Positions 1 through 20,277 of a DNA stretch of 64,000 nucleotides are shown in pieces. The notes under the pieces are model-generated. The model made no database searches. It saw nothing but the letters and a program-made list of their open reading frames with translations, and had not been told where the DNA came from. The stretch lies in the NCBI GenBank assembly GCA_040882355.1, contig JBBEBM010000067.1:1-64000 (forward strand), given 5' to 3'. The position numbers were made by a program, and so were the translations under genes. Within the stretch, counting starts at the first letter, position 1. Every line of letters starts with the position of its first letter. The DNA is from Dehalococcoidia bacterium (GTDB lineage Bacteria > Chloroflexota > Dehalococcoidia > DSTF01 > RBG-16-68-14).

Positions 1-1190
1 TCGACCTGACGTGGGTGCTCTCGGGGCCGTACGCCTCGATGGTGCTCTGCGACCTGGGCGCCGAGGTGATCAAGGTCGAGCGCCCGCCCTGGGGCGACAT
101 CGCCCGCACGACGGGCCCCCACATCAACGGCGAGAGCTGCTACTTCTTCAGCGTCAACCGCGGCAAGAAGAGCACGGCGATCGATCTCCAGAAGGACGAG
201 GGCAAGGAGCTCTTCCTGCGGCTGGTCGAGCACGTCGACGTGGTGATGGAGAACTTCACTCCCGGCACCATGGACGGCCTGGGGCTGGGCTACGTCGCAC
301 TGAGCAAACGCAACCCCCGCTTAATCTACGCTGCGACATCGGGCTTCGGGCAGACAGGGCCCGACCGGCTGCGGCCCGCGCTCGACATCGTCGTGCAGGG
401 GATGGGCGGCGTGATGAGCATCACCGGCCACCCGGGCGGCCCGCCGACCCGCCCCGGCCTCTCGCTGGGCGACATCGCGGGCGGACTGTTCACCGCGATC
501 GGCGTGCTGGCGGCGTTGCGCGAGCGCGACCAGAGCGGGCAGGGCCAGCTCGTCGACGTGAGCATGCTCGACTGCCAGATCGCGGTGCTCGAGAACGCCT
601 TCGTGCGCTACTTCGCCACCGGCCAGCCCCCGGGGCCGATCGGTACGCGCCACCCGCTGGCGACGCCGTTTCAGGCGTTCCCGACGAAGGACGGCTGGAT
701 CGTGCTCGCGCTGAGCTGGGGCGTCGAGAACCAGTGGGAGCTCTTCTGCGCCCTGATCGAGCGGCCCGAGCTGATCAACGACGGCCGCTTCGAGACAAGC
801 GGCCTGCGCACGGAGCATCACGCGGAGCTGGAGCCGATCTTGAACGAGGCGCTGAGCCAGCGCACGACCGCGCAGTGGCTCACGGAGTTCGACGCCATCG
901 GCCTGCCCTGCGGCCCGCTAAACACCATCCCGCAGGCGGCAGAGCTGCCGCAGATCAAGGCGCGCGACATGCTCGTCGAAGTCGAGCACCCGGCGATCGG
1001 CAAGCTGCCGCTGGCGAACACGCCGGTAAAGCTGTCGCGCACGCCGGGCGGCATCAGGGGGCCCTCGCCAGCCGCCGGGGCCCACACGGACGCCGTGCTT
1101 CGCGACCTGCTCGGCCTCTCAGGCGTGGAGATCGCGCGGCTACGGGAGTCGGAGGTCGTCGGCGGGCCCTACCCGCCGCCGCCGGTTTGA
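1..1190 (+). CDS. CaiB/BaiF family (class III) CoA-transferase, 5' end truncated by window edge
   Basis: Frame open from position 3 (DLTWVLSGPY...); motifs DLGAEVIKVE, NRGKKS, ENF.PG, GFGQTGP. Confidence 0.93.
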   Translation, partial: DLTWVLSGPYASMVLCDLGAEVIKVERPPWGDIARTTGPHINGESCYFFSVNRGKKSTAIDLQKDEGKELFLRLVEHVDVVMENFTPGTMDGLGLGYVALSKRNPRLIYAATSGFGQTGPDRLRPALDIVVQGMGGVMSITGHPGGPPTRPGLSLGDIAGGLFTAIGVLAALRERDQSGQGQLVDVSMLDCQIAVLENAFVRYFATGQPPGPIGTRHPLATPFQAFPTKDGWIVLALSWGVENQWELFCALIERPELINDGRFETSGLRTEHHAELEPILNEALSQRTTAQWLTEFDAIGLPCGPLNTIPQAAELPQIKARDMLVEVEHPAIGKLPLANTPVKLSRTPGGIRGPSPAAGAHTDAVLRDLLGLSGVEIARLRESEVVGGPYPPPPV

Positions 1191-1194
1191 CGGC

Positions 1195-1230
1195 TTTGAA
1201 ATTCGAAGTTCGAGGATTCGATGTTCGAAG
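1195..1230. repeat. Degenerate heptamer tandem repeat (TTCGAAG-like, about 5 units)
   Basis: tttgaaa-ttcgaag-ttcgagga-ttcgatg-ttcgaag between convergent stop codons. Confidence 0.55.
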
Positions 1231-1258
1231 GCCAGGCTTTGGCCTGGCGCGAGGTTCG

Positions 1259-3268
1259 CTAGGTCCCGCGCCGCGCCAGCGAGACGGCGCCCCAGCCGAG
1301 CGCCAGCACGGCGACGCCGGAGAGCAGGATGATCGCAGCGACGGACGCGTTGCCGTCAAACGGCCAGTCCCAGATGCTGCTGGACGAACCCTCGCCCTCA
1401 GCCTCGCCACCTTCGGAGGTCGCGGCGCGGATCGGCAGGTCGAAGGTGGTGCTGACGTCGTCCTCGCCGAGGCGGCGCACGGTGACGGTCACTTCCCAAT
1501 CGCCCGGCAACCCCAGGTTGCTCCCGCTGGCCGCGAACTTCGCGCTGCCGAAGAGCGGCAGCGCCAGCCGCGACGGGCCGACGTCCTGGGTAAGGTTTTT
1601 GAAATCGAGTCGCGTCTCCTGGATCTCGCCGACGAAGCCGAACTCGGAGCCAACGCCGACCTCGAAGTTGTTCTGGCCGATCTCCGCTGGTTCGACCCTC
1701 AGCGAGAGGACAAGGCCGCCCGCCTGGTTCGCCTTCAAGAAGTACCCCTGCTCGTCCTGGGGCAGCGCGCCCGTCGGCCCGCTCGAGACAGACGCCTGTT
1801 CCTCCGCGTCGGCAGCGGCGCGCGGCGGCTCGAGCTGGACTAGCACGGCGACGGCGACCAGGATGACGATGCCCAGTACGGCCTCGAGGCGTACGGTGTT
1901 CGACAGCATGTCTTGCAGGCGCGCGATCGCGCCCGTCGCGGTGGAATCGCCTGCGGGCCGTTCGCCGCCGTTCACTTCATCGATCGCGTCGACGACGCGC
2001 GGGCGGAGGATGAACGCGTTCAGCCCGGCAACGGCGAGCAGCGGGACCATGACGCCCATCTTGGCGATGAGCGACCAGCCGTAGTTCGTGCTCCAGAGGT
2101 CGCTCCACGAATCGAACTGTACGAGCGCGCTGAAGACGCCGCTGGCCATGATCACGACCACGGAAACCGCGGCCAGCACCGAGAAGCGCCGGAACGAATC
2201 GCCGGCGAACAGCGTGCGAGGCGCGCCCTGCAGCTCGTCCAGCCAGCGGGGCATCGCCAGGCCGATGTGGACCAGCGCGCCGATCCAGAACGACGCGGCC
2301 AGCATGTGCAGGAAGTCAGCGGTCGTGGCCCAGAAGGCGCCGTCGCTGCCGCCCGCGTGGCTCACCATCGACTGCGTGAAGAGCACGCCAACAGACGACA
2401 CAAGCAGCAGGACGAGCGCAGGAAGCTGAAGCGCGCGTTCGCCCGCGCGCCAGATCAGCGCGAGCGAGCCGAGGCCGACGAGCAGCAGCGCTTGTCTAGC
2501 GATCAGGTAGTTGCCCGATCGCGTGTCGAAGAGGATCTCGTCTACCTTGCCGAGGCCGCCGAGCCGGTCGGCGTCGAGCAACAGCTCGATCAGGCTGCCC
2601 TCCAGCACGAGGAACGCGCCGATGGCGCCCGTCACCAACAGGATAGAGCGGGACAGCGAGCGCACCTTCGCGCTGGAATCGGGCGCGAGAACGCCCGTGG
2701 CCGGGAGACCGACGAACAGGACGTAAGCGGATCCTCCCAGCAGCACCGCGCCTCCCAGGAGCACGACCCAGCGCGCGACCGAGTCGAGCGTGGACGGAGT
2801 GTCGGACGGCAGATCGATGAGATCCTCAACCGAGACGGCCGTGCCGCCGACCGGCTTCTCCCCGTTCGGGCCCAGCACGCTGAAGGTGTAGGAGCCCGCC
2901 CAGGTGTGACCGTCGACCGTCGAGAGGTTGCGCCACACGACCGTATAGACGCCCATGGTGAGGTCTTGCGAGACGGTCGCCACCATCTCCTCTGTCGAAG
3001 GGAAGGAGACGCCGGTTAGCGGGACCTCTTTCGCCTCCCCGTCCCAGAGCTGCATGGTGCTCACGGACGGCTCGATCTCCTCGCTGAAGGTGACGGCTAG
3101 CTGGTCCGGCGAATTAGTGAGCTCGCTGTTGGGCTCCGGGCTGGCCGTGACCTGGACCGCGTGCGCTTCCGCGCGCCCCGCGCCGAGGATCATGATGGGA
3201 AGCGTGAGGAGCATCGCTAGGAGGGCGCCGGCGCCCAGAGGCCAGAGTCTCGTGAATTTTTTCGTCAT
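1259..3268 (-). CDS. CopC/CopD fusion copper uptake/resistance protein with C-terminal extracellular domain and membrane anchor
   Basis: Signal peptide AEA-HA then CopC motifs (HA...SP, TFSE, WRNLSTVDGH); multiple TM helices with SHAG and HMLAASFWIG CopD motifs. Confidence 0.9.
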   Translation of the reverse strand: MTKKFTRLWPLGAGALLAMLLTLPIMILGAGRAEAHAVQVTASPEPNSELTNSPDQLAVTFSEEIEPSVSTMQLWDGEAKEVPLTGVSFPSTEEMVATVSQDLTMGVYTVVWRNLSTVDGHTWAGSYTFSVLGPNGEKPVGGTAVSVEDLIDLPSDTPSTLDSVARWVVLLGGAVLLGGSAYVLFVGLPATGVLAPDSSAKVRSLSRSILLVTGAIGAFLVLEGSLIELLLDADRLGGLGKVDEILFDTRSGNYLIARQALLLVGLGSLALIWRAGERALQLPALVLLLVSSVGVLFTQSMVSHAGGSDGAFWATTADFLHMLAASFWIGALVHIGLAMPRWLDELQGAPRTLFAGDSFRRFSVLAAVSVVVIMASGVFSALVQFDSWSDLWSTNYGWSLIAKMGVMVPLLAVAGLNAFILRPRVVDAIDEVNGGERPAGDSTATGAIARLQDMLSNTVRLEAVLGIVILVAVAVLVQLEPPRAAADAEEQASVSSGPTGALPQDEQGYFLKANQAGGLVLSLRVEPAEIGQNNFEVGVGSEFGFVGEIQETRLDFKNLTQDVGPSRLALPLFGSAKFAASGSNLGLPGDWEVTVTVRRLGEDDVSTTFDLPIRAATSEGGEAEGEGSSSSIWDWPFDGNASVAAIILLSGVAVLALGWGAVSLARRGT

Positions 3269-3313: not shown

Positions 3314-3357
3314 GGATTCACTGAATGCCGTTCAGTTTTCCCCCAGGAGTGTATACC

Positions 3358-4386
3358 ATGAAGAAGCCAGGCCCGTCAAAGGAACTCCTCCCCCTGCTGC
3401 TCCTGGCCGCGTGCGTGGCGCTCGCGGTCGTCGCATCCACGCTGAACGTTGTGCTGGACGGCGACAACGGCTGGGCTGAGATCGCGGCAGCGGCCGCGCT
3501 CGTCGCCACCGTCGTGGCGATCGCCATCCTCCTGAGCAGCAAGCAGGGTTGGGTGAACGGCACGCGGGTCTCGCGCGCGGCGCTTGCGACCATCGTCGTA
3601 GGCATGGGCGCGCTGGTCATGGTCGTGGTCACCTACGCGGGCATGGGCGATTCGGGCACCTCGGCGTCGAGCGCGCCGGTGAGCGACGAAGGCGCAGCGC
3701 TCAGCCAGCAGGTCTCCAACAACGACATCCAGCCGCCCGGATACGCCCACGACCTGGGCGGACACCCAGCGTTCGCGAACTTCATGTCGATGGACGACGC
3801 GACCGTCCTCGCAAACGTGCCAGGCGGGACGCTGCTCCCGAACGAGGTCGGTCCCCTGCAAGACGAGCTCACCGCGGCTAGGGAGTTCGCTCTGCAGCAC
3901 GACACCATCGAGAAGGCGCAGGCGGCCGGCTTCTTCAACACCACCAACGACGTACCGTTCATGGGCGCGCACTTCATCAGCCAGGAGTACCTGACGGACG
4001 GCGTGTTCGACCCGAGCAAGCCGGAAGGGCTGCTGTTCAGCAAGAAGGGCGGCGGCGACACCGCCCCCTGGCAGCTCGTCGGCGTGTGGTTCCTGCTCGT
4101 GCCGGGGATTAACGGCGGCGTCACGACGACCATGCCGCCTGAGGGCTTCGCGGGCAACCTGGACCTGTGGCACGCCCACCGCGGGCTCTGCACCCGGGCT
4201 AATGGCATCTCCGAGAACAACACCCAGGAAAGCTGCGTTGCCGACAAGGGCAACTTCATCGGCGACATCCGCTGGATGATGCACGTGTGGGTGTACCCGG
4301 AGGGCGCCGACAACCCCGAGGGCGTCTTCACCTACCTGAACACCAACCTCTACCAGATGCAGCAAAACGTCCAAGCGGCACCGTAG
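3358..4386 (+). CDS. Membrane-anchored hypothetical protein with His/Met-containing extracellular domain
   Basis: Three N-terminal TM segments; MGAHF, PEGLLF, WHAH, MMHVWV...NPEGVF motifs; divergent from copCD. Confidence 0.75.
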   Translation: MKKPGPSKELLPLLLLAACVALAVVASTLNVVLDGDNGWAEIAAAAALVATVVAIAILLSSKQGWVNGTRVSRAALATIVVGMGALVMVVVTYAGMGDSGTSASSAPVSDEGAALSQQVSNNDIQPPGYAHDLGGHPAFANFMSMDDATVLANVPGGTLLPNEVGPLQDELTAAREFALQHDTIEKAQAAGFFNTTNDVPFMGAHFISQEYLTDGVFDPSKPEGLLFSKKGGGDTAPWQLVGVWFLLVPGINGGVTTTMPPEGFAGNLDLWHAHRGLCTRANGISENNTQESCVADKGNFIGDIRWMMHVWVYPEGADNPEGVFTYLNTNLYQMQQNVQAAP

Positions 4387-4435
4387 CCCTGCCCCGCCGC
4401 CCCGTCCCGCCCCGGGGGGGGGGGGGGGGGGGGGG

Positions 4436-4445
4436 NNNNNNNNNN
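4436..4445. other. Assembly gap (10 N) preceded by 22-nt poly-G
   Basis: Seen directly. Confidence 0.99.
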
Positions 4446-4539: not shown

Positions 4540-4761
4540 GTGGCAGACCTCGTCATCTACACAGTGCCCGGATGCAACACCTGCGCGCGCGCCGTCCAGG
4601 AGATGACGGACGAGGGCATCGAGTTCGAGGAGCGCGACATCCACAAGAACGCCCAGTGGCTCGAGGAGGCGTCGCGACTCGCGGTCACCGTCCCGATCCT
4701 CGTACGCGGGAACCGCATCGAGGTGGGCTGGCGCGGGGACTCGGGCTGCCTCTTCCAGTGA
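4540..4761 (+). CDS. Glutaredoxin/NrdH-like redoxin with additional C-terminal Cys
   Basis: IYTVPGCNTC (CxxC), TVP cis-Pro loop, IEVGW, terminal GCLFQ*; RBS AGGAG; extended -10 TGcTACAAT at 4495-4503. Confidence 0.85.
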   Translation: MADLVIYTVPGCNTCARAVQEMTDEGIEFEERDIHKNAQWLEEASRLAVTVPILVRGNRIEVGWRGDSGCLFQ

Positions 4762-4786
4762 GCCCAGGGAACGCAGAGGTCGCTCG

Positions 4787-6952
4787 TTGCTCCAGATCCA
4801 CAACACGCTGACCCGCCGGAAGGAACCGTTCGCTCCGCTGGATGCGGGCCAGGCGCGCATCTACTCCTGCGGCCCGACCGTCTATCGAGACGTCCACGTC
4901 GGCAATCTGCGCACATACCTGCTCGCCGACTGGCTACGCCGAACGCTAGAGAAGTCCGGCCTGACGGTGACGCACGTCAAGAACATCACCGACGTCGGCC
5001 ACATGCGCCAGGAGCTGCTGGAGCGCGGCGACGACAAGGTGATCGCCGCGGCGCTCGCCGCCGGCAAGACGCCCCAGCAGATCGCGGAGACGTACACGCA
5101 GTCGTTCCTGCGCGACGAGACCGCGCTCAACATCAAGCCCGCGCACGTCTTCCCGCGCGCCACGGAGCACATCCCCCAGATGATCGCGATGACGGAGCGC
5201 CTGATCGAACGCGGCCTGGCGTACGAGGTCGAGGGCAACGTCTACTTCAGCGTCGAGCGCTTCCCGGCCTACGGGGCGCTCTCCGGCAATACCGGCGAGT
5301 CGCTGCTGGAGGGCGTGCGGGCCGAGACCGACCCGAAGAAGCGCGACCCGCGCGACTTCGCCCTCTGGAAGGCGGCGGAGCCGGGCCGCGCGATGAAGTG
5401 GCCGAGCCCCTGGGGTGACGGCTTTCCCGGCTGGCACATCGAGTGCTCCGCGATGTCCACCTTCCACCTGGGCGAGCGGTTCGACATCCACACAGGCGGC
5501 GTCGACAACGTCTTTCCGCACCACGAGGGCGAGCGCGCCCAGAGCGAGGGCGCCCTGGAGCACCAGGTCGTCAACTACTGGGTGCACGGCCAGCACCTGC
5601 TCGTGGATGGGCTGAAGATGGCGAAGTCCACGGGCAACGTCTACACGCTGCCCGACCTAGAGGCGCGTGGCTACGACCCGCTCGCCTTCCGCTACCTCTG
5701 CGCGACCGTCCACTATCGCCGCCGCCTCAACTTCACGTTCGACTCGCTGCGCGCGGCGGCGATCGGCCTGAACCGCCTGCGTCAGGAGACGTTCCTGGCG
5801 GCGTCGGTCTCAGACGGAGCGCACGGGGCCGACGCCGCAGGCAAGCAGTGGGAGCGCGCCTTCCGCGACGCGCTCGAGGACGACCTGCACTTGCCGCGCG
5901 CCCTCGCGGTCGTGTGGGAGCTGGTGCGGCGCTCCGACGCATCGCCTGCCTCGAAGGCGCGCCTGCTCCGTTCGTTCGACGAGGTGCTCGGCCTCGACCT
6001 ACTCCCCGCGAACACCGATGTGCCGTCGTCGGTTCAGACGCTGGTCGAGGAACGCTCCTCGCTGCGTGATCGAGCGTCGTTCGCGGGGGCGGACGCCTTG
6101 CGCGAGCGCATCAGTGCCGCCGGCTACGACGTCCGCGACACGCGCGACGGCCCGCTGCTCGTGCCGCGCTTCGCGCCACCGGCGAAGGTCGCGGCGCTCC
6201 ACTCATCGCGGGAGGCGGCATCGCGCCTCGATCAGCCGGACGAGCTCGATTTCACCGTCGTGGTCGTGGGGCGCGACGAGTTGTCGGGCCTGCGGCGCAC
6301 CGCCGAGAGCGTGCTGCGACACGCCGGCGACCAGGAGGTCGAACTGATCGTCGTCGACAACGGCTCGACGGACGGCACGGATGCCTGGTTGCGTGAAGCG
6401 GCGCAGATCGACACGCGCATGCAACCGGTCGTCTGCGACCACAACCTGGGGACCGCGGCCGCGCGCAACATCGCCCTGCAGCGAGCGCGCGGGCGCAACG
6501 TCGTGCTGCTCGACACCAGCATCGAGGTCGCCGGCGACATCTTCGCGCCGATCGCGGAGGGGCTCGCCGATGACGCGGTAGGCGTCGTGGGACCGTTCGG
6601 GGTGAACACGAACGACCTGCGCCAGTTCGAAGACGCGCCGGGACCGGAGGTGGACGCGGTCGAAGGTTACCTGATGGCGTTCCGCCGCGACCGCGCGCGC
6701 GAGGTGGGGCCCCTGGACGAGAAGTTCCGCTTCTACCGCCACCTCGACCTCGACTTCAGCCTGACGTTGCGCGAGCGAGGCTATCGCAACCGGCTGGTGC
6801 CGGACCTGCCGCTGCTCCGTCACGCCCACACCGACTGGGAGCGGACGCCGGAGGAAGAACGCGAGCGGCTGAGCAAGCGCAACTTCTACCGCTTCCTGAA
6901 GAAGCACGGGCACAGCCAGGACGTGCTGGTCGCGAACGCGCGCAAATCGTAG
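4787..6952 (+). CDS. cysS: Cysteinyl-tRNA synthetase fused to C-terminal family-2 glycosyltransferase domain
   Basis: CGPTVY, HVGN (HIGH), NITDV, DFALWK, GWHIECSAM, FPHHE, KMAKS, DALR-type helical and anticodon domains; then VVDNGSTDGT, NLGTAAARN, LDEKF..DLDFS of the GT-A fold. Confidence 0.9.
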   Translation: MLQIHNTLTRRKEPFAPLDAGQARIYSCGPTVYRDVHVGNLRTYLLADWLRRTLEKSGLTVTHVKNITDVGHMRQELLERGDDKVIAAALAAGKTPQQIAETYTQSFLRDETALNIKPAHVFPRATEHIPQMIAMTERLIERGLAYEVEGNVYFSVERFPAYGALSGNTGESLLEGVRAETDPKKRDPRDFALWKAAEPGRAMKWPSPWGDGFPGWHIECSAMSTFHLGERFDIHTGGVDNVFPHHEGERAQSEGALEHQVVNYWVHGQHLLVDGLKMAKSTGNVYTLPDLEARGYDPLAFRYLCATVHYRRRLNFTFDSLRAAAIGLNRLRQETFLAASVSDGAHGADAAGKQWERAFRDALEDDLHLPRALAVVWELVRRSDASPASKARLLRSFDEVLGLDLLPANTDVPSSVQTLVEERSSLRDRASFAGADALRERISAAGYDVRDTRDGPLLVPRFAPPAKVAALHSSREAASRLDQPDELDFTVVVVGRDELSGLRRTAESVLRHAGDQEVELIVVDNGSTDGTDAWLREAAQIDTRMQPVVCDHNLGTAAARNIALQRARGRNVVLLDTSIEVAGDIFAPIAEGLADDAVGVVGPFGVNTNDLRQFEDAPGPEVDAVEGYLMAFRRDRAREVGPLDEKFRFYRHLDLDFSLTLRERGYRNRLVPDLPLLRHAHTDWERTPEEERERLSKRNFYRFLKKHGHSQDVLVANARKS

Positions 6953-7043
6953 CGATCTCGCGCATCGTTGCGCCTGAGTTCGCTTTTCCCCCTTAAGCCG
7001 TCCACACATCGCAAGGATGGCCGATCGAGGCAAGTCTTGATGG

Positions 7044-7084
7044 TTGCAATGCTGTAGCGGGCGATATATACTGGCCGTAGGTAT
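7044..7084 (+). promoter_or_regulatory. Sigma70 promoter with overlapping inverted repeat (candidate PadR operator)
   Basis: TTGCAA-17 nt-TATACT (7044-7072); ATAC-N9-GTAT at 7068-7084. Confidence 0.6.
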
Positions 7085-7113
7085 TGGACACAGAGGCATT
7101 GGGAGCATAGGTA

Positions 7114-7521
7114 ATGGCTGAACTCATCGAACGTGACCTGACCGACAAGACGTACTGGCGCATGCTGGCCAGCCGGGGCACCGGGCGCTTCCTGGTGCTC
7201 GCCGCCCTCAACGAGCGGCCCCGTCACGGCTACGAGCTGGCCCGCGCCGTCACCATCGCCTGCGACGGCTGCTGCGAGCCCTCGGACGCGATGATCTACC
7301 CCACCATCCGCGAGCTGCTCGAGGGCGGCTACATCGTCTGCCGGACGGAGGCGCAGGGCAACCGCCAGCGCAAGGTCTGCGAGCTGACCGACCGCGGCCG
7401 CGACGCCTATCGCGCCGCCGCGGAGGTCTGGAGCGCGGTGCTCCCCGCCCTACAGGACGCGGTCGCCGTGGGCCTGGCGCTGCCAGCCACGGAGAAGAAA
7501 CGGATCGAGGTAAGCGCGTAG
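7114..7521 (+). CDS. PadR family transcriptional regulator, Cys-rich
   Basis: LAAL.ERPRHGYEL, IYPT...L...GYI, RK.CELT..G; CDGCC insert. Confidence 0.9.
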   Translation: MAELIERDLTDKTYWRMLASRGTGRFLVLAALNERPRHGYELARAVTIACDGCCEPSDAMIYPTIRELLEGGYIVCRTEAQGNRQRKVCELTDRGRDAYRAAAEVWSAVLPALQDAVAVGLALPATEKKRIEVSA

Positions 7522-7567: not shown

Positions 7568-8392
7568 ATGACCAACCGAACAGCCGAGGAGATCAAGGAA
7601 GCGGTCGTCGAGCGATACGGCTCACGGGCGCGCGGGCAGCTCGCGAAGGAGGAGACGATCGCCGTTGCCGCTGTCGGCGAAGACTCCTGTTGCGGGCCGA
7701 GCAAGGACGTTGTGCCCGACACCTCGAACTGGGCCGACAAGCTCTACTCCGCACAGGAGCTGGGCGCCGTGCCGAAAGAGGTCACCGAGCTCTCGCTCGG
7801 CTGCGGCAACCCGACCGCCATCGCCGAGCTGCGCCCCGGCGACGCCGTGCTCGATCTGGGTAGCGGCAGCGGGCTCGACTGCTTCCTGGCGGCGCAGCAG
7901 GTCGGCCCGCAGGGCCGCGTCGTCGGCCTCGACATGACGGACGACATGCTCGCGCTCGCGGGCCGCAACCTGGCGAAGGTCGGCGCGACGAACGTTGAGT
8001 TCCATAAGGGGGAGATGGAGTCGATGCCGCTGCCCGGCGACACGTTCGACGTGATCATCTCGAACTGCGTGATCAACCTCTCGCCGGACAAGGATGCCGT
8101 CTTCCGCGAGTCGTTCCGCGTGCTCAAGCCGGGCGGCCGCGTGCGCGTCTCCGACATCGTCTGGACGCGCGAACCCAGCGCCTCCGAGCGCGACGACCTT
8201 TCGAGTTGGGCGGGCTGCATCGCGGGGGCGCTGCTCGTTGACGAGTACACGGGCAAGCTGAAGGACGCCGGCTTCCAGGCGATCGACATGCAGTTCGCGG
8301 GCGAGCCAGACAAGCGCGGCTGGGCGAGCGCCTACGTCACCGCGACCAAGCCCGCCGACGCCGCCTGCTGCGGCCCGAGCTGCTGCGGTTAG
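7568..8392 (+). CDS. arsM: Arsenite S-adenosylmethionine methyltransferase
   Basis: SCCG, SLGCGNP, LDLGSGSGLD, ISNCVINL, WAGCIAGA, C-terminal CC pairs. Confidence 0.9.
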   Translation: MTNRTAEEIKEAVVERYGSRARGQLAKEETIAVAAVGEDSCCGPSKDVVPDTSNWADKLYSAQELGAVPKEVTELSLGCGNPTAIAELRPGDAVLDLGSGSGLDCFLAAQQVGPQGRVVGLDMTDDMLALAGRNLAKVGATNVEFHKGEMESMPLPGDTFDVIISNCVINLSPDKDAVFRESFRVLKPGGRVRVSDIVWTREPSASERDDLSSWAGCIAGALLVDEYTGKLKDAGFQAIDMQFAGEPDKRGWASAYVTATKPADAACCGPSCCG

Positions 8393-8396
8393 CCAC

Positions 8397-8690
8397 GTGA
8401 GCGACGAGAACGCCCTCGACATCCTCGCCTGCGAGATCGAGCTGCGCCCGCGCGGCGCGCCCGGTATCGAGGATATCGCGAGGGCGATCGTGACCGTGGA
8501 GCGAGCTGGGCCGTGCACACTGGCGGTCGAGTTCGACGCGGCAGCGGCCGCCGATGTGGAGGCGTTCGCCGCCGCGGAACAGCGCTGCTGTTCGACGCTC
8601 TCGTGGACGGTCGAGCATCGAGAGGGCGTCACTCGCCTGACGATCGGCGCAGAGCCGCCGCAGATCGACCTGCTGGAGGAGATCTTCTAG
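8397..8690 (+). CDS. Small hypothetical protein with EQRCC metal(loid)-binding-like motif
   Basis: Third gene of PadR-arsM operon; AAAEQRCCSTL. Confidence 0.7.
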   Translation: MSDENALDILACEIELRPRGAPGIEDIARAIVTVERAGPCTLAVEFDAAAAADVEAFAAAEQRCCSTLSWTVEHREGVTRLTIGAEPPQIDLLEEIF

Positions 8691-17193: not shown

Positions 17194-18156
17194 GTGAAGC
17201 CCTCACCGCGAGCGCCCGCGGGCAGCCTGGCGCGGTTGGTCGAGCGGTTGTCGCCGGGCGGGCGCCTGGTGCGCATGCGCCGTTTGCGCGGCGGCATCGG
17301 CACACGGATGCACGTCCTCGACATCAAGAATGCGGAGGGCGCGCGGCGGAAGGTGACGCTGCGGCGGTTCGTGCCGGGTCATCACTACGCCACACCTGAG
17401 CACGTCGCCCAGGAGTTCGACATTCTCCGTCTGGTCAGGTCGGCCGGCATCGCGGCGCCGGAACCGCTGGTCCTGGATGCCGAAGGCGAGCTGTTCGGCG
17501 TGCCGGCGATGGTGCTCTCCTACGTCCCTGGCGGGCCGCTGTACGCCCCCCGGGACGAACGCGCGTGGGTGGAGCAGCTTGCCGGAGCGCTGCTACCGCT
17601 CCACGCGATGACGCCGAACCGCTTCGACCTATCGAGTCTCGAGGTACGGCTCGCGGACGCCATACGCGATCAGCTATGCCGGAGGGCTGAGACGGCGGGG
17701 GCGCATGGCGCGCTCGCTCGCGACGTCCACGCCGTGTTGACGCGGAACTTGGACCAGATCGACTGGGCCGAGCCCTGCCTCACGCATGACGACTACTGGC
17801 TCGGCAATACGGTCTGGTATCGCGGGCGCTTCGCGGCGATCATCGACTGGACTCCAGCCAAGGTGGGCGACCCTCGCGCCGACGTCGCGCAGTGCCGCAT
17901 CGACCTGGCGATCAGCCACGGGCGCGACGTGCCGGACGCCTTTCTCGAGGCCTATCAGAGGCTGGCGCCGCGGCCGCTGCCCGATGTCTGGTACTTCGAC
18001 CTGCAGCGCGGACTGGACGGTCTGCTCTACTACGAGCAGTGGCTGGAGGGCTACCAGGACTTCGGTCTGACTCACCTGACGCCGACGCTTGCCCGCCGCC
18101 GGCTCGAGGCGTTCTTGCGCAGGGCGCTGGCGGAGGGAGCGAGGGCCCGATCGTAG
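17194..18156 (+). CDS. Aminoglycoside phosphotransferase/choline kinase-like protein
   Basis: HDDYWLGN and IIDW motifs; start approximate. Confidence 0.85.
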   Translation: MKPSPRAPAGSLARLVERLSPGGRLVRMRRLRGGIGTRMHVLDIKNAEGARRKVTLRRFVPGHHYATPEHVAQEFDILRLVRSAGIAAPEPLVLDAEGELFGVPAMVLSYVPGGPLYAPRDERAWVEQLAGALLPLHAMTPNRFDLSSLEVRLADAIRDQLCRRAETAGAHGALARDVHAVLTRNLDQIDWAEPCLTHDDYWLGNTVWYRGRFAAIIDWTPAKVGDPRADVAQCRIDLAISHGRDVPDAFLEAYQRLAPRPLPDVWYFDLQRGLDGLLYYEQWLEGYQDFGLTHLTPTLARRRLEAFLRRALAEGARARS

Positions 18157-18266
18157 GGACAGACCTTCAGGTCTGTCCGGCCCTGAATCGCAGCGTTTTT
18201 CTTGAGGGCCGGACAGAGCTTCCGCCGGTGGCGGACCCGCCTTCGGCGGGCAAGCTCTGTCCCGAC
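18153..18266. repeat. REPIN-like inverted pair of REPs, second copy interrupted by two mini-hairpins
   Basis: GTAGGGACAGACCTtcAGGTCTGTCC and inverted GGACAGAGCT...AGCTCTGTCCCGAC; ctgtccggccct/agggccggacag stem. Confidence 0.75.
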
Positions 18267-18293
18267 ACCCGCTCCCTGCCCCAGCACCCCTTG

Positions 18294-19154
18294 CTAGAAC
18301 ATGACGGACGGGCAGAAGGTGCCCTGGGGCTCTTCGTACGGGCCAAGCGCCATCAGGTTCATGACCTTGGTGTTGCGGTGGCCGGCCGCCAGCGCCCGGC
18401 GGTAGAGCTCGCCCTGCCGCAACGGCACGAACGAGTGCGACTCCGGCACACTGACGCCCAGCCCCGCGAGCAAGGCGAGCATATCGTCTTCCGACTCAGC
18501 GACGCCGTGCCCGAGAGCGGTGCCCAGGAGATACCCGGCGACTCGCCCACCGCGGTCGATCGTGAGCGCGGGAAAGCCGAGCCCCATCAGCACGGCGCAC
18601 TCGCCCTTGCGACTGATGAGGTAGACGCTGCGGCACAACTCGTCCATCGCATCGAGGTCGTCGGCCGTGGCCGGTCGCAGGTTAGGGTCGAGAGCGCCTT
18701 CCTGCGAGAGCGCCACGTAGGAGAGCGGCTCCTTCGTGTCGAAGCCGAGCGAGGAGTAGAGGGCGAGCGACTGCATGTTGAACGAGTCCTGGCAGAGCCG
18801 GATCATCTCATAGCCTTGCGCCCGGCCGTGCGCGACGACGTCCGTCATCGTCTGGCGCCCGATACCCCGCCCCTGGGAGCCCACGTCCACCGAGACCGGC
18901 CCCACGCCCGCGACCTCGCCCCACATGTTGAGGAAGTTCGATCCCTTCGCGGCGCCGTCCTCGAACGCGGCGACGCCGTACACCTGCTCGTTCTGCACGA
19001 GCAGCCCGACGACCTGCTGCGCGAACTCTACGGTCGAGAAATCGCTCAGGAAGCCGTGCCGCTCCGAGATGTCCTTGAACGCTTCGTAGCAGATGCGCCC
19101 CAGCTCGGACACGTCTTCCGGGCGCGCGGACCGCAGCTCGATGGCCATCGTCAT
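18294..19154 (-). CDS. GNAT family acetyltransferase
   Basis: GPVSVD..SQGRGIG, SLALYSSLGF. Confidence 0.88.
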   Translation of the reverse strand: MTMAIELRSARPEDVSELGRICYEAFKDISERHGFLSDFSTVEFAQQVVGLLVQNEQVYGVAAFEDGAAKGSNFLNMWGEVAGVGPVSVDVGSQGRGIGRQTMTDVVAHGRAQGYEMIRLCQDSFNMQSLALYSSLGFDTKEPLSYVALSQEGALDPNLRPATADDLDAMDELCRSVYLISRKGECAVLMGLGFPALTIDRGGRVAGYLLGTALGHGVAESEDDMLALLAGLGVSVPESHSFVPLRQGELYRRALAAGHRNTKVMNLMALGPYEEPQGTFCPSVMF

Positions 19155-19158
19155 CCTC

Positions 19159-20277
19159 CTAATCGATCGGCAGCCCGAACGCCATCCGGCCGGCGTACTG
19201 GCGCTGAGGCATCTCCTGCATGGGGTGGAAGCGCGCCCCCTGGACGTCGCGGAAGAGACGCTCCAGGCCGGCCTTGCGGTAGAAGGCGGCGCCGCTGCCC
19301 AGCTCCAGCGCCCGCTCGACCGTGCGTACGGCGGCGCGACCGGCGAGGGTCCTGCCGATCGTCGCGCGGTTCGTCGCTTCCGGGCCGGGCTGGCTCGTGC
19401 TGCCGTTCTCGATCATGTCGCGCAGCGCGAGCCGGGCGCCTGTCAGCTCGTTGTCGAGCTCGCCGGCGAGCAACTGGACGCCCGTATCGTCACGCTTCTT
19501 CTCCGCCAGCCGCAGCGCGAGGTCGCGCGCCGCTTCGGCGACGCCGACGTAGACCGAGTAGATGAGCGGCAGCGCGATCATGGCGACGGTGTGCATCGCC
19601 GGATGCCACACGCCGGCCGGCCGGCGCACGGCGACCGCGCCCTCAGGTACGAAGACGTCCTCCAGCGTAACGTCATTCGAGCCGGTCGCGCGCATGCCGA
19701 GGGTGTGCCAGGTGTCGAGGACCTTCGCCCCCTCGTCGTTGAGCGCGACGGGAAGGTGCAAGACGGTGCGCCCATCGTTGGGGTCGTCATAGACCGCGGT
19801 CGTCATGAGCATCGCGCCGGCGGGGACGCCGCTGCAGAAGATCTTGCGCCCGCTCACGCGGAACCCGCCGTCGACCTTCTCGGCAGTGCCGGAGCCGTCC
19901 AGCCAGTCGGATCCCCCCGTGGAGACGAGGACCGGCTGCTCCTTCGCCACGCGCTCCAGTAGCGCATTCACCGGTGCTCCCTGGTTTCGGTAGCGCCAGG
20001 CCGGCACGGCCACCAGGTGCGTATGCATCGAGAGCGCCAGCGCGGTCGAGCCGCAGTAGTGGGCGAGCGTGCGCAGCAGGTCGCACAGGTCCTGGAGGGA
20101 CGCGTCGCCACCGCCGAGGTCGGCCGGCACGGCCGCGCCAAAGACGTTGCGCGCCTTCAGCTCTTCGTAATTCTTGTGCACGAACGAGTCGTCCTGGTCG
20201 TGCTGGGCCGCGCGTTCGGCGAACGCGGGTCCCAGCTCGTTCGCGAGGCCAATCCAGTCCTGTGTCGTGGTGGTCAT
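19159..20277 (-). CDS. Acyl-CoA dehydrogenase family protein
   Basis: AERAAQHD, GRKIFCSG, W.TLGMRATGS, LERLFRD. Confidence 0.9.
   Translation of the reverse strand: MTTTTQDWIGLANELGPAFAERAAQHDQDDSFVHKNYEELKARNVFGAAVPADLGGGDASLQDLCDLLRTLAHYCGSTALALSMHTHLVAVPAWRYRNQGAPVNALLERVAKEQPVLVSTGGSDWLDGSGTAEKVDGGFRVSGRKIFCSGVPAGAMLMTTAVYDDPNDGRTVLHLPVALNDEGAKVLDTWHTLGMRATGSNDVTLEDVFVPEGAVAVRRPAGVWHPAMHTVAMIALPLIYSVYVGVAEAARDLALRLAEKKRDDTGVQLLAGELDNELTGARLALRDMIENGSTSQPGPEATNRATIGRTLAGRAAVRTVERALELGSGAAFYRKAGLERLFRDVQGARFHPMQEMPQRQYAGRMAFGLPID

Follow-up and report, generated by a model that had tools for sequence, protein, structure and literature searches.

Several paralogues of aminoacyl-tRNA synthetases work outside translation, among them GluQRS, PoxA and HisZ, and each has opened new biochemistry. 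The same is true of MshC, the cysteine ligase of mycothiol synthesis, which left translation; the available parts of PMC2922099 treat it as a known ligase derived from cysteinyl-tRNA synthetase (CysRS) and ask whether it is a one-off. According to the accessible text of PMC5389517, a CysRS paralogue without an anticodon domain, CysRS*, serves a selC*-type tRNA-Cys. The identity elements of tRNA-Cys are the subject of PMC9976931, as far as its accessible text goes, and SepRS/SepCysS fusions are treated in PMC8762117, in whose available sections Chloroflexota go unmentioned. Glycosyltransferases that act on tRNA are represented by the animal enzymes QTGAL and QTMAN, which, in the descriptions available, modify the anticodon-loop nucleoside queuosine. 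Here we analyze a stretch of 64,000 nucleotides (the window) from a Dehalococcoidia bacterium of the phylum Chloroflexota (contig JBBEBM010000067.1), in which one open reading frame (ORF) links a complete CysRS, including its anticodon-binding domain CysS_C, to a family 2 glycosyltransferase (GT2). We found no description of a CysRS–glycosyltransferase fusion or of a CysS_C–GT2 protein in the full text searched, which leaves most subscription journals and supplements outside.

The ORF encodes a full-length CysRS followed in frame by an ordered linker and a GT2 domain (Table 1). This architecture, proposed in an earlier note written from the DNA letters alone, was borne out by Pfam, by the NCBIfam cysS cutoff and by the motifs. 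The protein scored 428.8 bits on the cysS model TIGR00435 (cutoff 340), matching model positions 1–460 of 466, and residues 490–615 matched Glycos_transf_2 (PF00535) with 66 bits (cutoff 23.3). Its top NCBIfam match was a PRK14536-type CysRS model at 442 bits, below the cutoff of 780, and a phmmer comparison with solved structures gave 294–326 bits for CysRS and 174 bits for MshC. Both active sites are conserved. In an alignment of 64 fusions, each 56–82% identical to the window protein, the CysRS site is invariant (C28, H37, G39, N40, C220, H245, H246, E247 and E249), as are K277-M-x-K280-S281 (K277-M-A-K-S281 in the window), D436 and R439; the HIGH-type motif of the window protein reads H37-V-G-N40. 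From the motif spacing, we take C28, C220, H245 and E249 to be equivalent to E. coli C28, C209, H234 and E238. Invariant positions of the GT2 half include D524, D576, S578, D654, H679 and H681 as well as a long C-terminal signature, FYRxLDxD...H.H...SKRNFxRF. Mean column identity over the 64 fusions is 66%, which, together with the many invariant GT2 residues, indicates strong constraint on both halves. The position expected to hold a DxD motif reads D576-T-S578, as had been noticed earlier, and thus has no second acidic residue; D576 is still kept at ≥90% when the shorter relatives described below are added to the alignment, and the second motif position is variable. H679 and H681 could complete a metal site.

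The AlphaFold2 model of the whole protein had a mean pLDDT (predicted local distance difference test) of 85.5 and a pTM (predicted template modeling score) of 0.83, with linker blocks at 82–87; when the GT2 domain was modeled alone, it reached 93.9, with the linker at 94–98. The linker is predicted to pack onto the GT2 domain, and the interdomain arrangement is confidently modeled. The model of the GT2 domain has a standard GT-A fold. VIA-align superposed 218 of its residues on PcManGT (6yv7; Z 20.7, root-mean-square deviation 3.3) and gave Z values of 20.2 for GalNAc-T1 (8v9q) and 18.2 for SpsA (1h7l), and the best Foldseek matches were WrtF and ppGalNAc-Ts. These fold searches returned generic GT-A matches only and did not identify the acceptor. 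A relationship to SunS-type GT2 enzymes, the S-glycosyltransferases of glycocins, was not significant when the GT2 profile was compared with PDB sequences (E 0.35–0.5 over ~55 residues).

The earlier note had allowed for a junction unsupported by reads and for a fusion unique to this assembly; neither turned out to be the case. Among contigs from four metagenome runs of one study, one of 1715 nt from run X1, a possible source, matches positions 5678–7200, and one of 591 nt from run X3, a sample other than the possible source, matches 6153–6743, both with 0 differences. Apparent joints in this comparison, whose sides measure 22–26 nt, derive from other contigs of the metagenomes and were not counted as variants. 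The junction-bridging contigs and the many related genomes with the same fusion rule out an assembly artefact. Relatives are encoded in at least 567 of 600 pattern-matched stretches drawn from one-genome-per-species contigs. Queried with GT2 residues 440–721, a set of 8000 scored candidates yielded 536 proteins at E ≤ 1e-3. Both PF01406 and PF00535 are present in 114 of the best 120, at ~700–750 aa, and the other six are pieces of 406–438 aa on contigs of 1.3–3 kb. Source names, where given, read ‘cysteine--tRNA ligase’ from Chloroflexota, Dehalococcoidia or Anaerolineae metagenome-assembled genomes. Locus comparisons below refer to the best 80 of the at least 567 related stretches, plus the window where 81 is stated. 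These loci include SAR202, Ktedonobacteria, Roseiflexaceae/Kouleothrix and Anaerolineae, as well as a cultured carrier, Thermogemmatispora carboxidivorans PM5 (L137). A single in-frame tblastn match spans fusion residues ~1–717 in 27 of the 29 best loci, and in the remaining two the match begins at residue 407. In an even sample of the phylum Chloroflexota, the GT2 module was detected at E ≤ 1e-20 in 72 of 301 genomes; it was not found in the five genomes of this sample flagged as unpublished. CysRS–GT2 is a real and widespread family, so far without a description.

Two further observations concern the fusions themselves. Typical fusions occur in records named Desulfarculaceae bacterium (L072) and Bathyarchaeia archaeon (L095), and both nest among Chloroflexota in the GT2 tree, so that either mis-binning or horizontal transfer is involved. 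A His-rich C-terminal tail of ~60–90 residues (HDHPHH...HTH.H.H..DH.HEH.H.H), absent from the window protein, is present in fusions L054, L056, L059, L061 and L062 (genomes G289, G225, G111, G165 and G287); its composition suggests metal binding.

The GT2 module is also found in open frames of ~300–440 aa, the short forms among them having ~320 aa. A junction query (residues 401–560) matched standalone GT2 proteins from about query position 7, and when short forms are compared with the fusion by tblastn, the matches start at its residue 407. CysS_C (PF23493) lies right before GT2 in all of the first ten short forms (8 above the gathering score) and, at E ≤ 0.01, in 18 of 20 from a second set of loci (5 above the gathering score). 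Altogether, it directly precedes GT2 in 28 of 30 locus-derived short forms (13 above the gathering score), and the two missed by PF23493 show the CysS_C motif by eye. A profile search of 1.84 billion representatives returned 1522 proteins at E ≤ 1e-30. After giant multi-GT2 proteins with summed scores among the top matches had been left out, we analyzed 42 single-stretch matches of non-fusion length. CysS_C was detected in 25 of them (E ≤ 0.01); 11 are fragments or domain-less forms that leave no room before GT2, one is a fusion fragment, and five have the room without a CysS_C match. The domain is thus carried by 25 of the 31 matches that have room for it. Its signature residues, R423, R427, D436, R439 and D451 in the window protein, are kept in 7/7 unfused full-length CysRS and in 63–64 of 64 fusions. 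Among short forms, R423, R427, D436 and D451 are present in 22/22 and R439 in 17/22, with Lys otherwise.

In the GT2 tree, short forms fall into two deep, long-stemmed clades (100/100 for either one), and a genome’s short form and its own fusion, where the two coexist, do not group as sisters. Short forms are therefore old lineages and not recent truncations. In three genomes of family f49 (loci L038, L149 and L151) a full-length CysRS gene lies immediately next to the short form in convergent orientation, and in genome G029 (L159) nadD, a family 4 glycosyltransferase (GT4), the short form and CysRS follow one another on one strand, the last two genes overlapping. Since the adjoining CysRS keeps a CysS_C of its own (Pfam detects it in L038, L151 and L159; in L149 it was recognized by eye), the domain in the short form is neither a fission remnant nor a mere docking stub. 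Moreover, seven genomes of 93–97% completeness pair a short form with a single cysS-family match, which implies that the GT2 module can do without a cysteine ligase dedicated to it. The conserved unit is CysS_C plus GT2, either fused behind a full CysRS of the lineage that we call type B (see below) or present as a ~320-aa protein, often beside a type-B CysRS. What is most telling about the family is that GT2 goes with the anticodon-binding domain and not with the catalytic body.

The earlier note had suggested housekeeping CysRS as a possible additional role of the fusion. The genome to which the window belongs (G000; 3.33 Mb, 94% complete) contradicts this: contig C31 carries a separate, unfused cysS (18059–19414, a 456-aa ORF) that scores 526 bits, versus 429 for the fusion, and we reject the fusion as sole or housekeeping cysS of this genome. 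In locus L001 from the same contig, cysS (1495–2865, +) is directly preceded by ORFs at 85–558 (+) and 725–1492 (+), which, by eye only, look like ispF and a serine acetyltransferase with hexapeptide repeats (cysE), a classic housekeeping arrangement. Across 29 verified fusion genomes (27 by tblastn, together with G000 and G287), at least two cysS-family matches are present in 27 and at least three in 24; the other two, with one match each, reach 76% and 57% completeness. In each of five near-complete fusion genomes in which all copies were examined, we found a full-length unfused CysRS, the fusion and a paralogue that has no anticodon-binding domain (ABD-less). The ABD-less paralogues have ~400 aa, are monophyletic and end in ‘...VLGLR’ (L063–L067, L036, L037; other Chloroflexota genomes). 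They scored 358–397 bits on the MshC model TIGR03447 (cutoff 485) and higher, 398–414 bits, on the cysS model, so their orthology with MshC is not established; they may be an MshC-like ligase of Chloroflexota. On the same MshC model the canonical CysRS of G000 scored 327.9 bits and the fusion only 224.9 (cutoff 485.1), making the fusion the least MshC-like member. Its sequence thus gives no sign of an MshC-like role, and most fusion genomes have a third cysS-family match besides.

In a tree of CysRS bodies (38 rows, quick IQ-TREE), a single clade (SH-aLRT 100, stem 0.7) holds 22/22 fused copies, 4/4 GT2-adjacent CysRS and three free Ktedonobacterial CysRS; this is type B, and the CysRS lineage linked to GT2 is thus monophyletic. 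Outside it fall the type-A canonical copies, including that of G000, and the ABD-less paralogues. Because a free type-B copy is the sole other full-length CysRS beside the fusion in three Ktedonobacterial genomes (G111, G225 and G289), type B appears to be a working tRNA synthetase lineage. We also considered a split enzyme: the ABD-less CysRS of ~400 aa ends where the short form begins, and the two lengths sum to that of the fusion. This idea is weak. Two cysS-family matches are also common in genomes of the GT2-less families f23, f29 and f44, and therefore an extra paralogue is not tied to GT2. It is further weakened by the seven near-complete genomes with one cysS-family gene and by the CysS_C present in GT2-adjacent CysRS genes.

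Taken together, we propose that members of the family are glycosyltransferases coupled to tRNA-Cys, with a CysRS dedicated to serving them, the fusion being a second, specialized CysRS of the distinct type-B lineage. We give this reading as a whole a probability of roughly 40%; it now leads, in place of an MshC-like thiol ligase, because the anticodon reader stays with the glycosyltransferase. CysS_C would read the GCA anticodon of tRNA-Cys and present the tRNA to the glycosyltransferase, either as such or as Cys-tRNA-Cys; in the fusion, the latter would be supplied in cis by the type-B synthetase body. The glycosyltransferase would then take a sugar from a nucleoside diphosphate (NDP)-sugar and attach it either to the anticodon arm of the tRNA or to the cysteine that the tRNA carries. 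We infer that short forms bind tRNA-Cys and that the GT2 domain is catalytically competent. The persistence of the CysS_C–GT2 coupling points to tRNA-Cys as what the glycosyltransferase needs, given that CysS_C is kept in old short forms, even next to a CysRS with its own copy. The housekeeping and MshC-like roles appear to be filled elsewhere, and the seven genomes in which a short form coexists with one cysS-family gene lend further support. So do the single type-B clade, the low MshC score of the fusion, the confidently modeled linker and interdomain arrangement, and the precedent that QTGAL and QTMAN set for glycosylation of an anticodon-loop nucleoside. That CysS_C–GT2 constitutes a new bacterial enzyme class, in which a glycosyltransferase, directed to one tRNA species by a borrowed anticodon reader, would act on the anticodon arm of tRNA-Cys or S-/N-glycosylate the cysteine of Cys-tRNA-Cys, is a more specific claim, and we consider it doubtful. 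Glycosyl-cysteine on a tRNA carrier, the cysteinyl-load variant, would fit the thiol and S-conjugate neighbors (gamma-glutamyltransferase, oligopeptidase, DinB/MST and glutaredoxin).

A number of observations weigh against a role on tRNA-Cys. CysS_C is dispensable in at least one lineage: in the fusion of genome G068 (L162) it is missing, and ~25 residues link ‘...LLGLDL’ to the strap that precedes GT2. The CysS_C signature residues are presumably those that touch the anticodon in the E. coli CysRS–tRNA complex (1U0B), but they could instead be structural. Short forms of family f27 lack the usual nucleotide-binding Asp (VVANEP), and L050 and L093 lack the D576 equivalent. In the genome of the window we found just one tRNA-Cys(GCA), an ordinary one (U73; A36-A37-A38 in the loop) whose sequence shows nothing unusual. 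The GT2 domain is acidic (median isoelectric point 5.4–5.6, net charge about −8 to −9), unlike the broad surface expected for RNA binding; its basic part is the conserved C-terminal helix only (R692...R702, net charge +3). With CysS_C on the anticodon, GT2 would lie far from the aminoacyl end, and the cysteinyl-load variant would require a fold-back or a dimer. Finally, the metabolic and thiol partners of short forms (gamma-glutamyltransferase, DinB_2/MST, LOG and ManC-like) fit a small-molecule pathway better than tRNA modification. Thiol and sugar neighbors, the acidic GT2, the fusion without an anticodon-binding domain and an orphan MshA-like/LmbE gene pair in G000 all point to a cysteine-sugar pathway.

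Such a pathway, independent of tRNA and leading to a low-molecular-weight thiol or a cysteinyl-glycoside, was the idea of the earlier note and is the main rival; we regard it as serious, if on the whole unlikely. GT2 would make a glycoside, the CysRS body would form Cys-AMP and ligate it to an amino sugar in the manner of MshC, and CysS_C would be a leftover of its ancestry or would serve in regulation or docking. The proposed cysteine/thiol link stays plausible in part, as thiol-type neighbors recur in independent lineages. A glutaredoxin gene lies directly upstream in 9/81 loci, gamma-glutamyltransferase directly upstream of the short form in 4/9 loci of family f38, and, in two genera of f49, the gene directly upstream is DinB_2, the copy in L149 also matching the mycothiol-S-transferase (MST) family. 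Sugar enzymes are close by as well: ManC-like in f38, GT4 in G029 and a GFO/IDH/MocA oxidoreductase in Ktedonobacteria-type loci. G000 has an MshA-like GT4 and an LmbE deacetylase, and as no MshC-like protein, BshC or glutathione synthetase (GshB) was found there, the cysteine-ligase step has no gene assigned to it; the L162 fusion, for its part, amounts to an MshC-like body plus GT2. What did not hold up is the appeal to ArsM. The fusion is far under the MshC cutoff and scores below ordinary CysRS, and the third cysS-family gene of 24/29 fusion genomes, ABD-less and MshC-sized in the five examined, could be the ligase. The near-complete genomes with a short form and one cysS-family gene also speak against this pathway. 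It leaves unexplained why 28/30 short forms keep CysS_C and its signature, even those next to a CysRS with a copy of the domain. Moreover, no neighbor is conserved family-wide (the maximum is 18/80 loci), the GT4 of G029 is generic, with 63 bits to MshA, and the thiol theme was spotted after the fact. A hybrid, in which cysteine on tRNA-Cys is glycosylated to give a product like a cysteine S-conjugate, would, purely as conjecture, reconcile both sets of facts.

Two other explanations seem less probable still. The protein might be a redundant, ordinary CysRS whose GT2 tail works on an unrelated target such as an envelope or storage glycan, the fusion and CysS_C being historical accidents. It does pass the curated cysS cutoff with every catalytic residue kept, the GT2 fold is generic, with polysaccharide, peptide and lipid-linked glycosyltransferases as nearest structures, neighborhoods are mostly housekeeping and clade-variable, and public annotation reads ‘cysteine--tRNA ligase’ and nothing else. 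However, an accident would not persist across several classes in four forms (the fusion, the short form with CysS_C, the convergent CysRS neighbor and the overlapping upstream neighbor of CysRS), nor does it agree with the strong constraint on both halves; we therefore consider it improbable. Alternatively, GT2 could be a sugar-nucleotide sensor that tunes a specialized CysRS, or CysS_C a sensor of uncharged tRNA-Cys that tunes the glycosyltransferase. Regulatory domains resembling aminoacyl-tRNA synthetases do exist, as in HisZ and the HisRS-like domain of GCN2. The degenerate D-T-S motif, the loss of the first nucleotide-binding Asp and of the D576 equivalent, each in some relatives, and the fixed interdomain geometry of the model would suit a sensor. 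Yet fused and short forms keep D576, E580, D654, H679 and H681 with few or no exceptions, the pattern of a working GT-A site, and in a short form there is no CysRS body on which regulation could act, so that a purely regulatory role is very improbable. A glycosyltransferase coupled to tRNA-Cys is thus the reading that we favor.

The surroundings of the fusion differ between clades, and we found no universal operon partner. In the window, the glutaredoxin-like gene stops 25 nt before the fusion start, and no terminator-like site was found between 4300 and 7600. This gene scored 62.6 bits on the NCBIfam Uxx-star family (cutoff 66), whose model name reads ‘(seleno)protein’; the gene here is the Cys form. 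Glutaredoxin is directly upstream of the fusion in 8 of the 80 related loci. Between the 353-aa ORF and the glutaredoxin gene, the stretch 4420–4445 contains a poly-G run followed by 10 N (4436–4445), an assembly gap. The glutaredoxin-like, PadR and ArsM genes around the fusion are real by Pfam and NCBIfam; the earlier note had named the first and the last and took them to fit a thiol role. PadR and ArsM recur beside the fusion only in the closest relative, L068 (1/80 loci), and we reject a functional link with this pair. Elsewhere, fusions sit among pyruvate kinase and Na-Ca exchanger genes, among DAO, CoA-transferase and MeaB, or among MatE, glutaredoxin and KASIII, depending on the clade; in Ktedonobacteria-type loci, the GFO/IDH/MocA oxidoreductase is at +1.

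Contexts are tighter around short forms than around fusions. The order in f38 is ManC-like, gamma-glutamyltransferase, short form and oligopeptidase F; the gamma-glutamyltransferase is a true member of its family (452 bits, cutoff 358) and in L168 its gene and that of the short form overlap by 4 nt. The gene directly upstream of the short form is of the LOG family in f41 and DinB_2 in f49, the latter preceded in L149 by a nucleoside 2-deoxyribosyltransferase-like gene. Nucleotide N-glycosidase-type genes thus occur upstream of short forms in two families. They hint at a nucleotide-derived substrate, which fits neither a tRNA-Cys-coupled enzyme nor a cysteine-sugar pathway clearly. Short forms of f37 have ETF genes and a carboxyltransferase nearby, and those of f27 a rhomboid gene.

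Table 1. Positions of the fusion, its domains and other genes discussed (window coordinates unless a contig or locus is named)
Feature	Position	Strand	Evidence or remark
CopC-CopD fusion	1259–3268	-	
353-aa ORF	3325..4386		
Glutaredoxin-like gene, 73 aa	4540..4761	+	CxxC = C-N-T-C; Pfam Glutaredoxin 39.1 bits
CysRS-GT2 fusion ORF, 721 aa + stop	4787..6952	+	AGAGG 8 nt ahead of the TTG start
Class I CysRS catalytic domain, residues 15–324	4829..5758	+	PF01406 tRNA-synt_1e, E 6.9e-97
DALR_2-like helical domain, residues 358–403	5858..5995	+	PF09190 21.0 bits, cutoff 22; helices in model
CysS_C anticodon-binding alpha/beta domain, residues 410–454	6014..6148	+	PF23493 20.0 bits, cutoff 23
Ordered linker, residues 455–486	6149..6244	+	Motif SS.DV.S.L.EPD; S474, S479 invariant (64 fusions)
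GT2 / GT-A glycosyltransferase domain, residues 487–721	6245..6949	+	PF00535 match at 490–615
PadR regulator	7114..7521	+	Promoter-like site 7044–7072 ahead
ArsM arsenite methyltransferase	7568..8392	+	NF008823 296.9 bits, cutoff 263
97-aa ORF	8397–8690	+	After ArsM; no family match
MshA-like GT4, full length	G000 C8 (L148) 5440–6687	-	TIGR03449 398 bits, cutoff 462.5
LmbE-family deacetylase	G000 C8 (L148) 4595–5434	-	Best family BshB1, 100.6 bits, cutoff 182.5; MshB 44 bits
LOG-family gene, f41	L160:5890–6786	-	TIGR00730
LOG-family gene, f41	L161:958–1842	+	TIGR00730
Nucleoside 2-deoxyribosyltransferase-like gene, f49	L149:6463–7815	-	Ahead of DinB_2

Elsewhere in G000, away from the fusion, the MshA-like GT4 gene on contig C8 is directly upstream of the LmbE deacetylase gene. 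The pair would cover the first two steps of a mycothiol- or bacillithiol-type pathway. BshA was not found above its cutoff in this genome, nor was an ABD-less cysS copy. ARAGORN called a tRNA-Sec(TCA) on C65 (12740–12836, −), and on this ground the organism probably uses selenocysteine. The same program reported a ‘tRNA-???’ of 90 nt with a four-base anticodon (ctcg) on C78 (28124–28213, +).

Should tRNA-Cys indeed be the target of the module, bacteria would have their first tRNA glycosyltransferase, and enzymes a novel means of being directed to one tRNA. If a cysteine-sugar thiol is built instead, the family would bear on the choice of redox buffer in Chloroflexota, since G000 yielded neither BshC nor glutathione synthetase. 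In either case, a phylum-wide family is annotated only as ‘cysteine--tRNA ligase’, and counting its members as housekeeping cysS misleads pathway and completeness calls. The function is directly testable, with a cultured carrier at hand and a short form that is small and soluble.

How, then, does the family compare with described systems? With canonical CysS (TIGR00435; PF01406, PF09190 and PF23493; structures 1li5/1u0b, 8qhp, 6ujd and 3sp1) the fusion shares the domain set, the zinc/cysteine-site residues and the class I motifs. It differs in the ~265 residues of linker and GT2 added after the anticodon domain, in being a paralogue beside a separate cysS and in belonging to the type-B clade. 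Like MshC (Cys:GlcN-Ins ligase; TIGR03447; 3c8z, 8hfm), as covered by the available parts of PMC2922099, it derives from CysRS, has a sugar context and would share the chemistry of cysteine activation. Unlike MshC, which is tRNA-independent and has no anticodon-binding domain, the fusion keeps CysS_C and misses the MshC cutoff, and a separate ABD-less paralogue accompanies it in the five genomes examined. CysRS* of Desulfobacterales, as presented in the accessible text of PMC5389517, is likewise a second, specialized paralogue beside the housekeeping enzyme; its anticodon domain is absent, and the tRNA it works with is of the opal-decoding selC* type, whereas the fusion retains the domain, adds GT2 and occurs with the one ordinary tRNA-Cys(GCA) that we found. 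The likeness to QTGAL and QTMAN is one of mechanism only, namely glycosylation in the tRNA anticodon loop, for which they are the sole described case that we found. Those enzymes come from eukaryotes, have Q34 of tRNA-Tyr and tRNA-Asp as their target and, in contrast to CysS_C–GT2, carry no anticodon-binding domain derived from an aminoacyl-tRNA synthetase. As for the glycosyltransferase half, it resembles GT2/GT-A enzymes with PF00535 (PcManGT 6yv7, ppGalNAc-T 8v9q, SpsA 1h7l and WrtF 9omh) at Z 18–21 over 206–231 aligned residues. It is set apart from generic GT2 proteins by the N-terminal strap SS.DV.S.L.EPD, by D-x-S in place of DxD, by its C-terminal signature and by the association with CysS_C.

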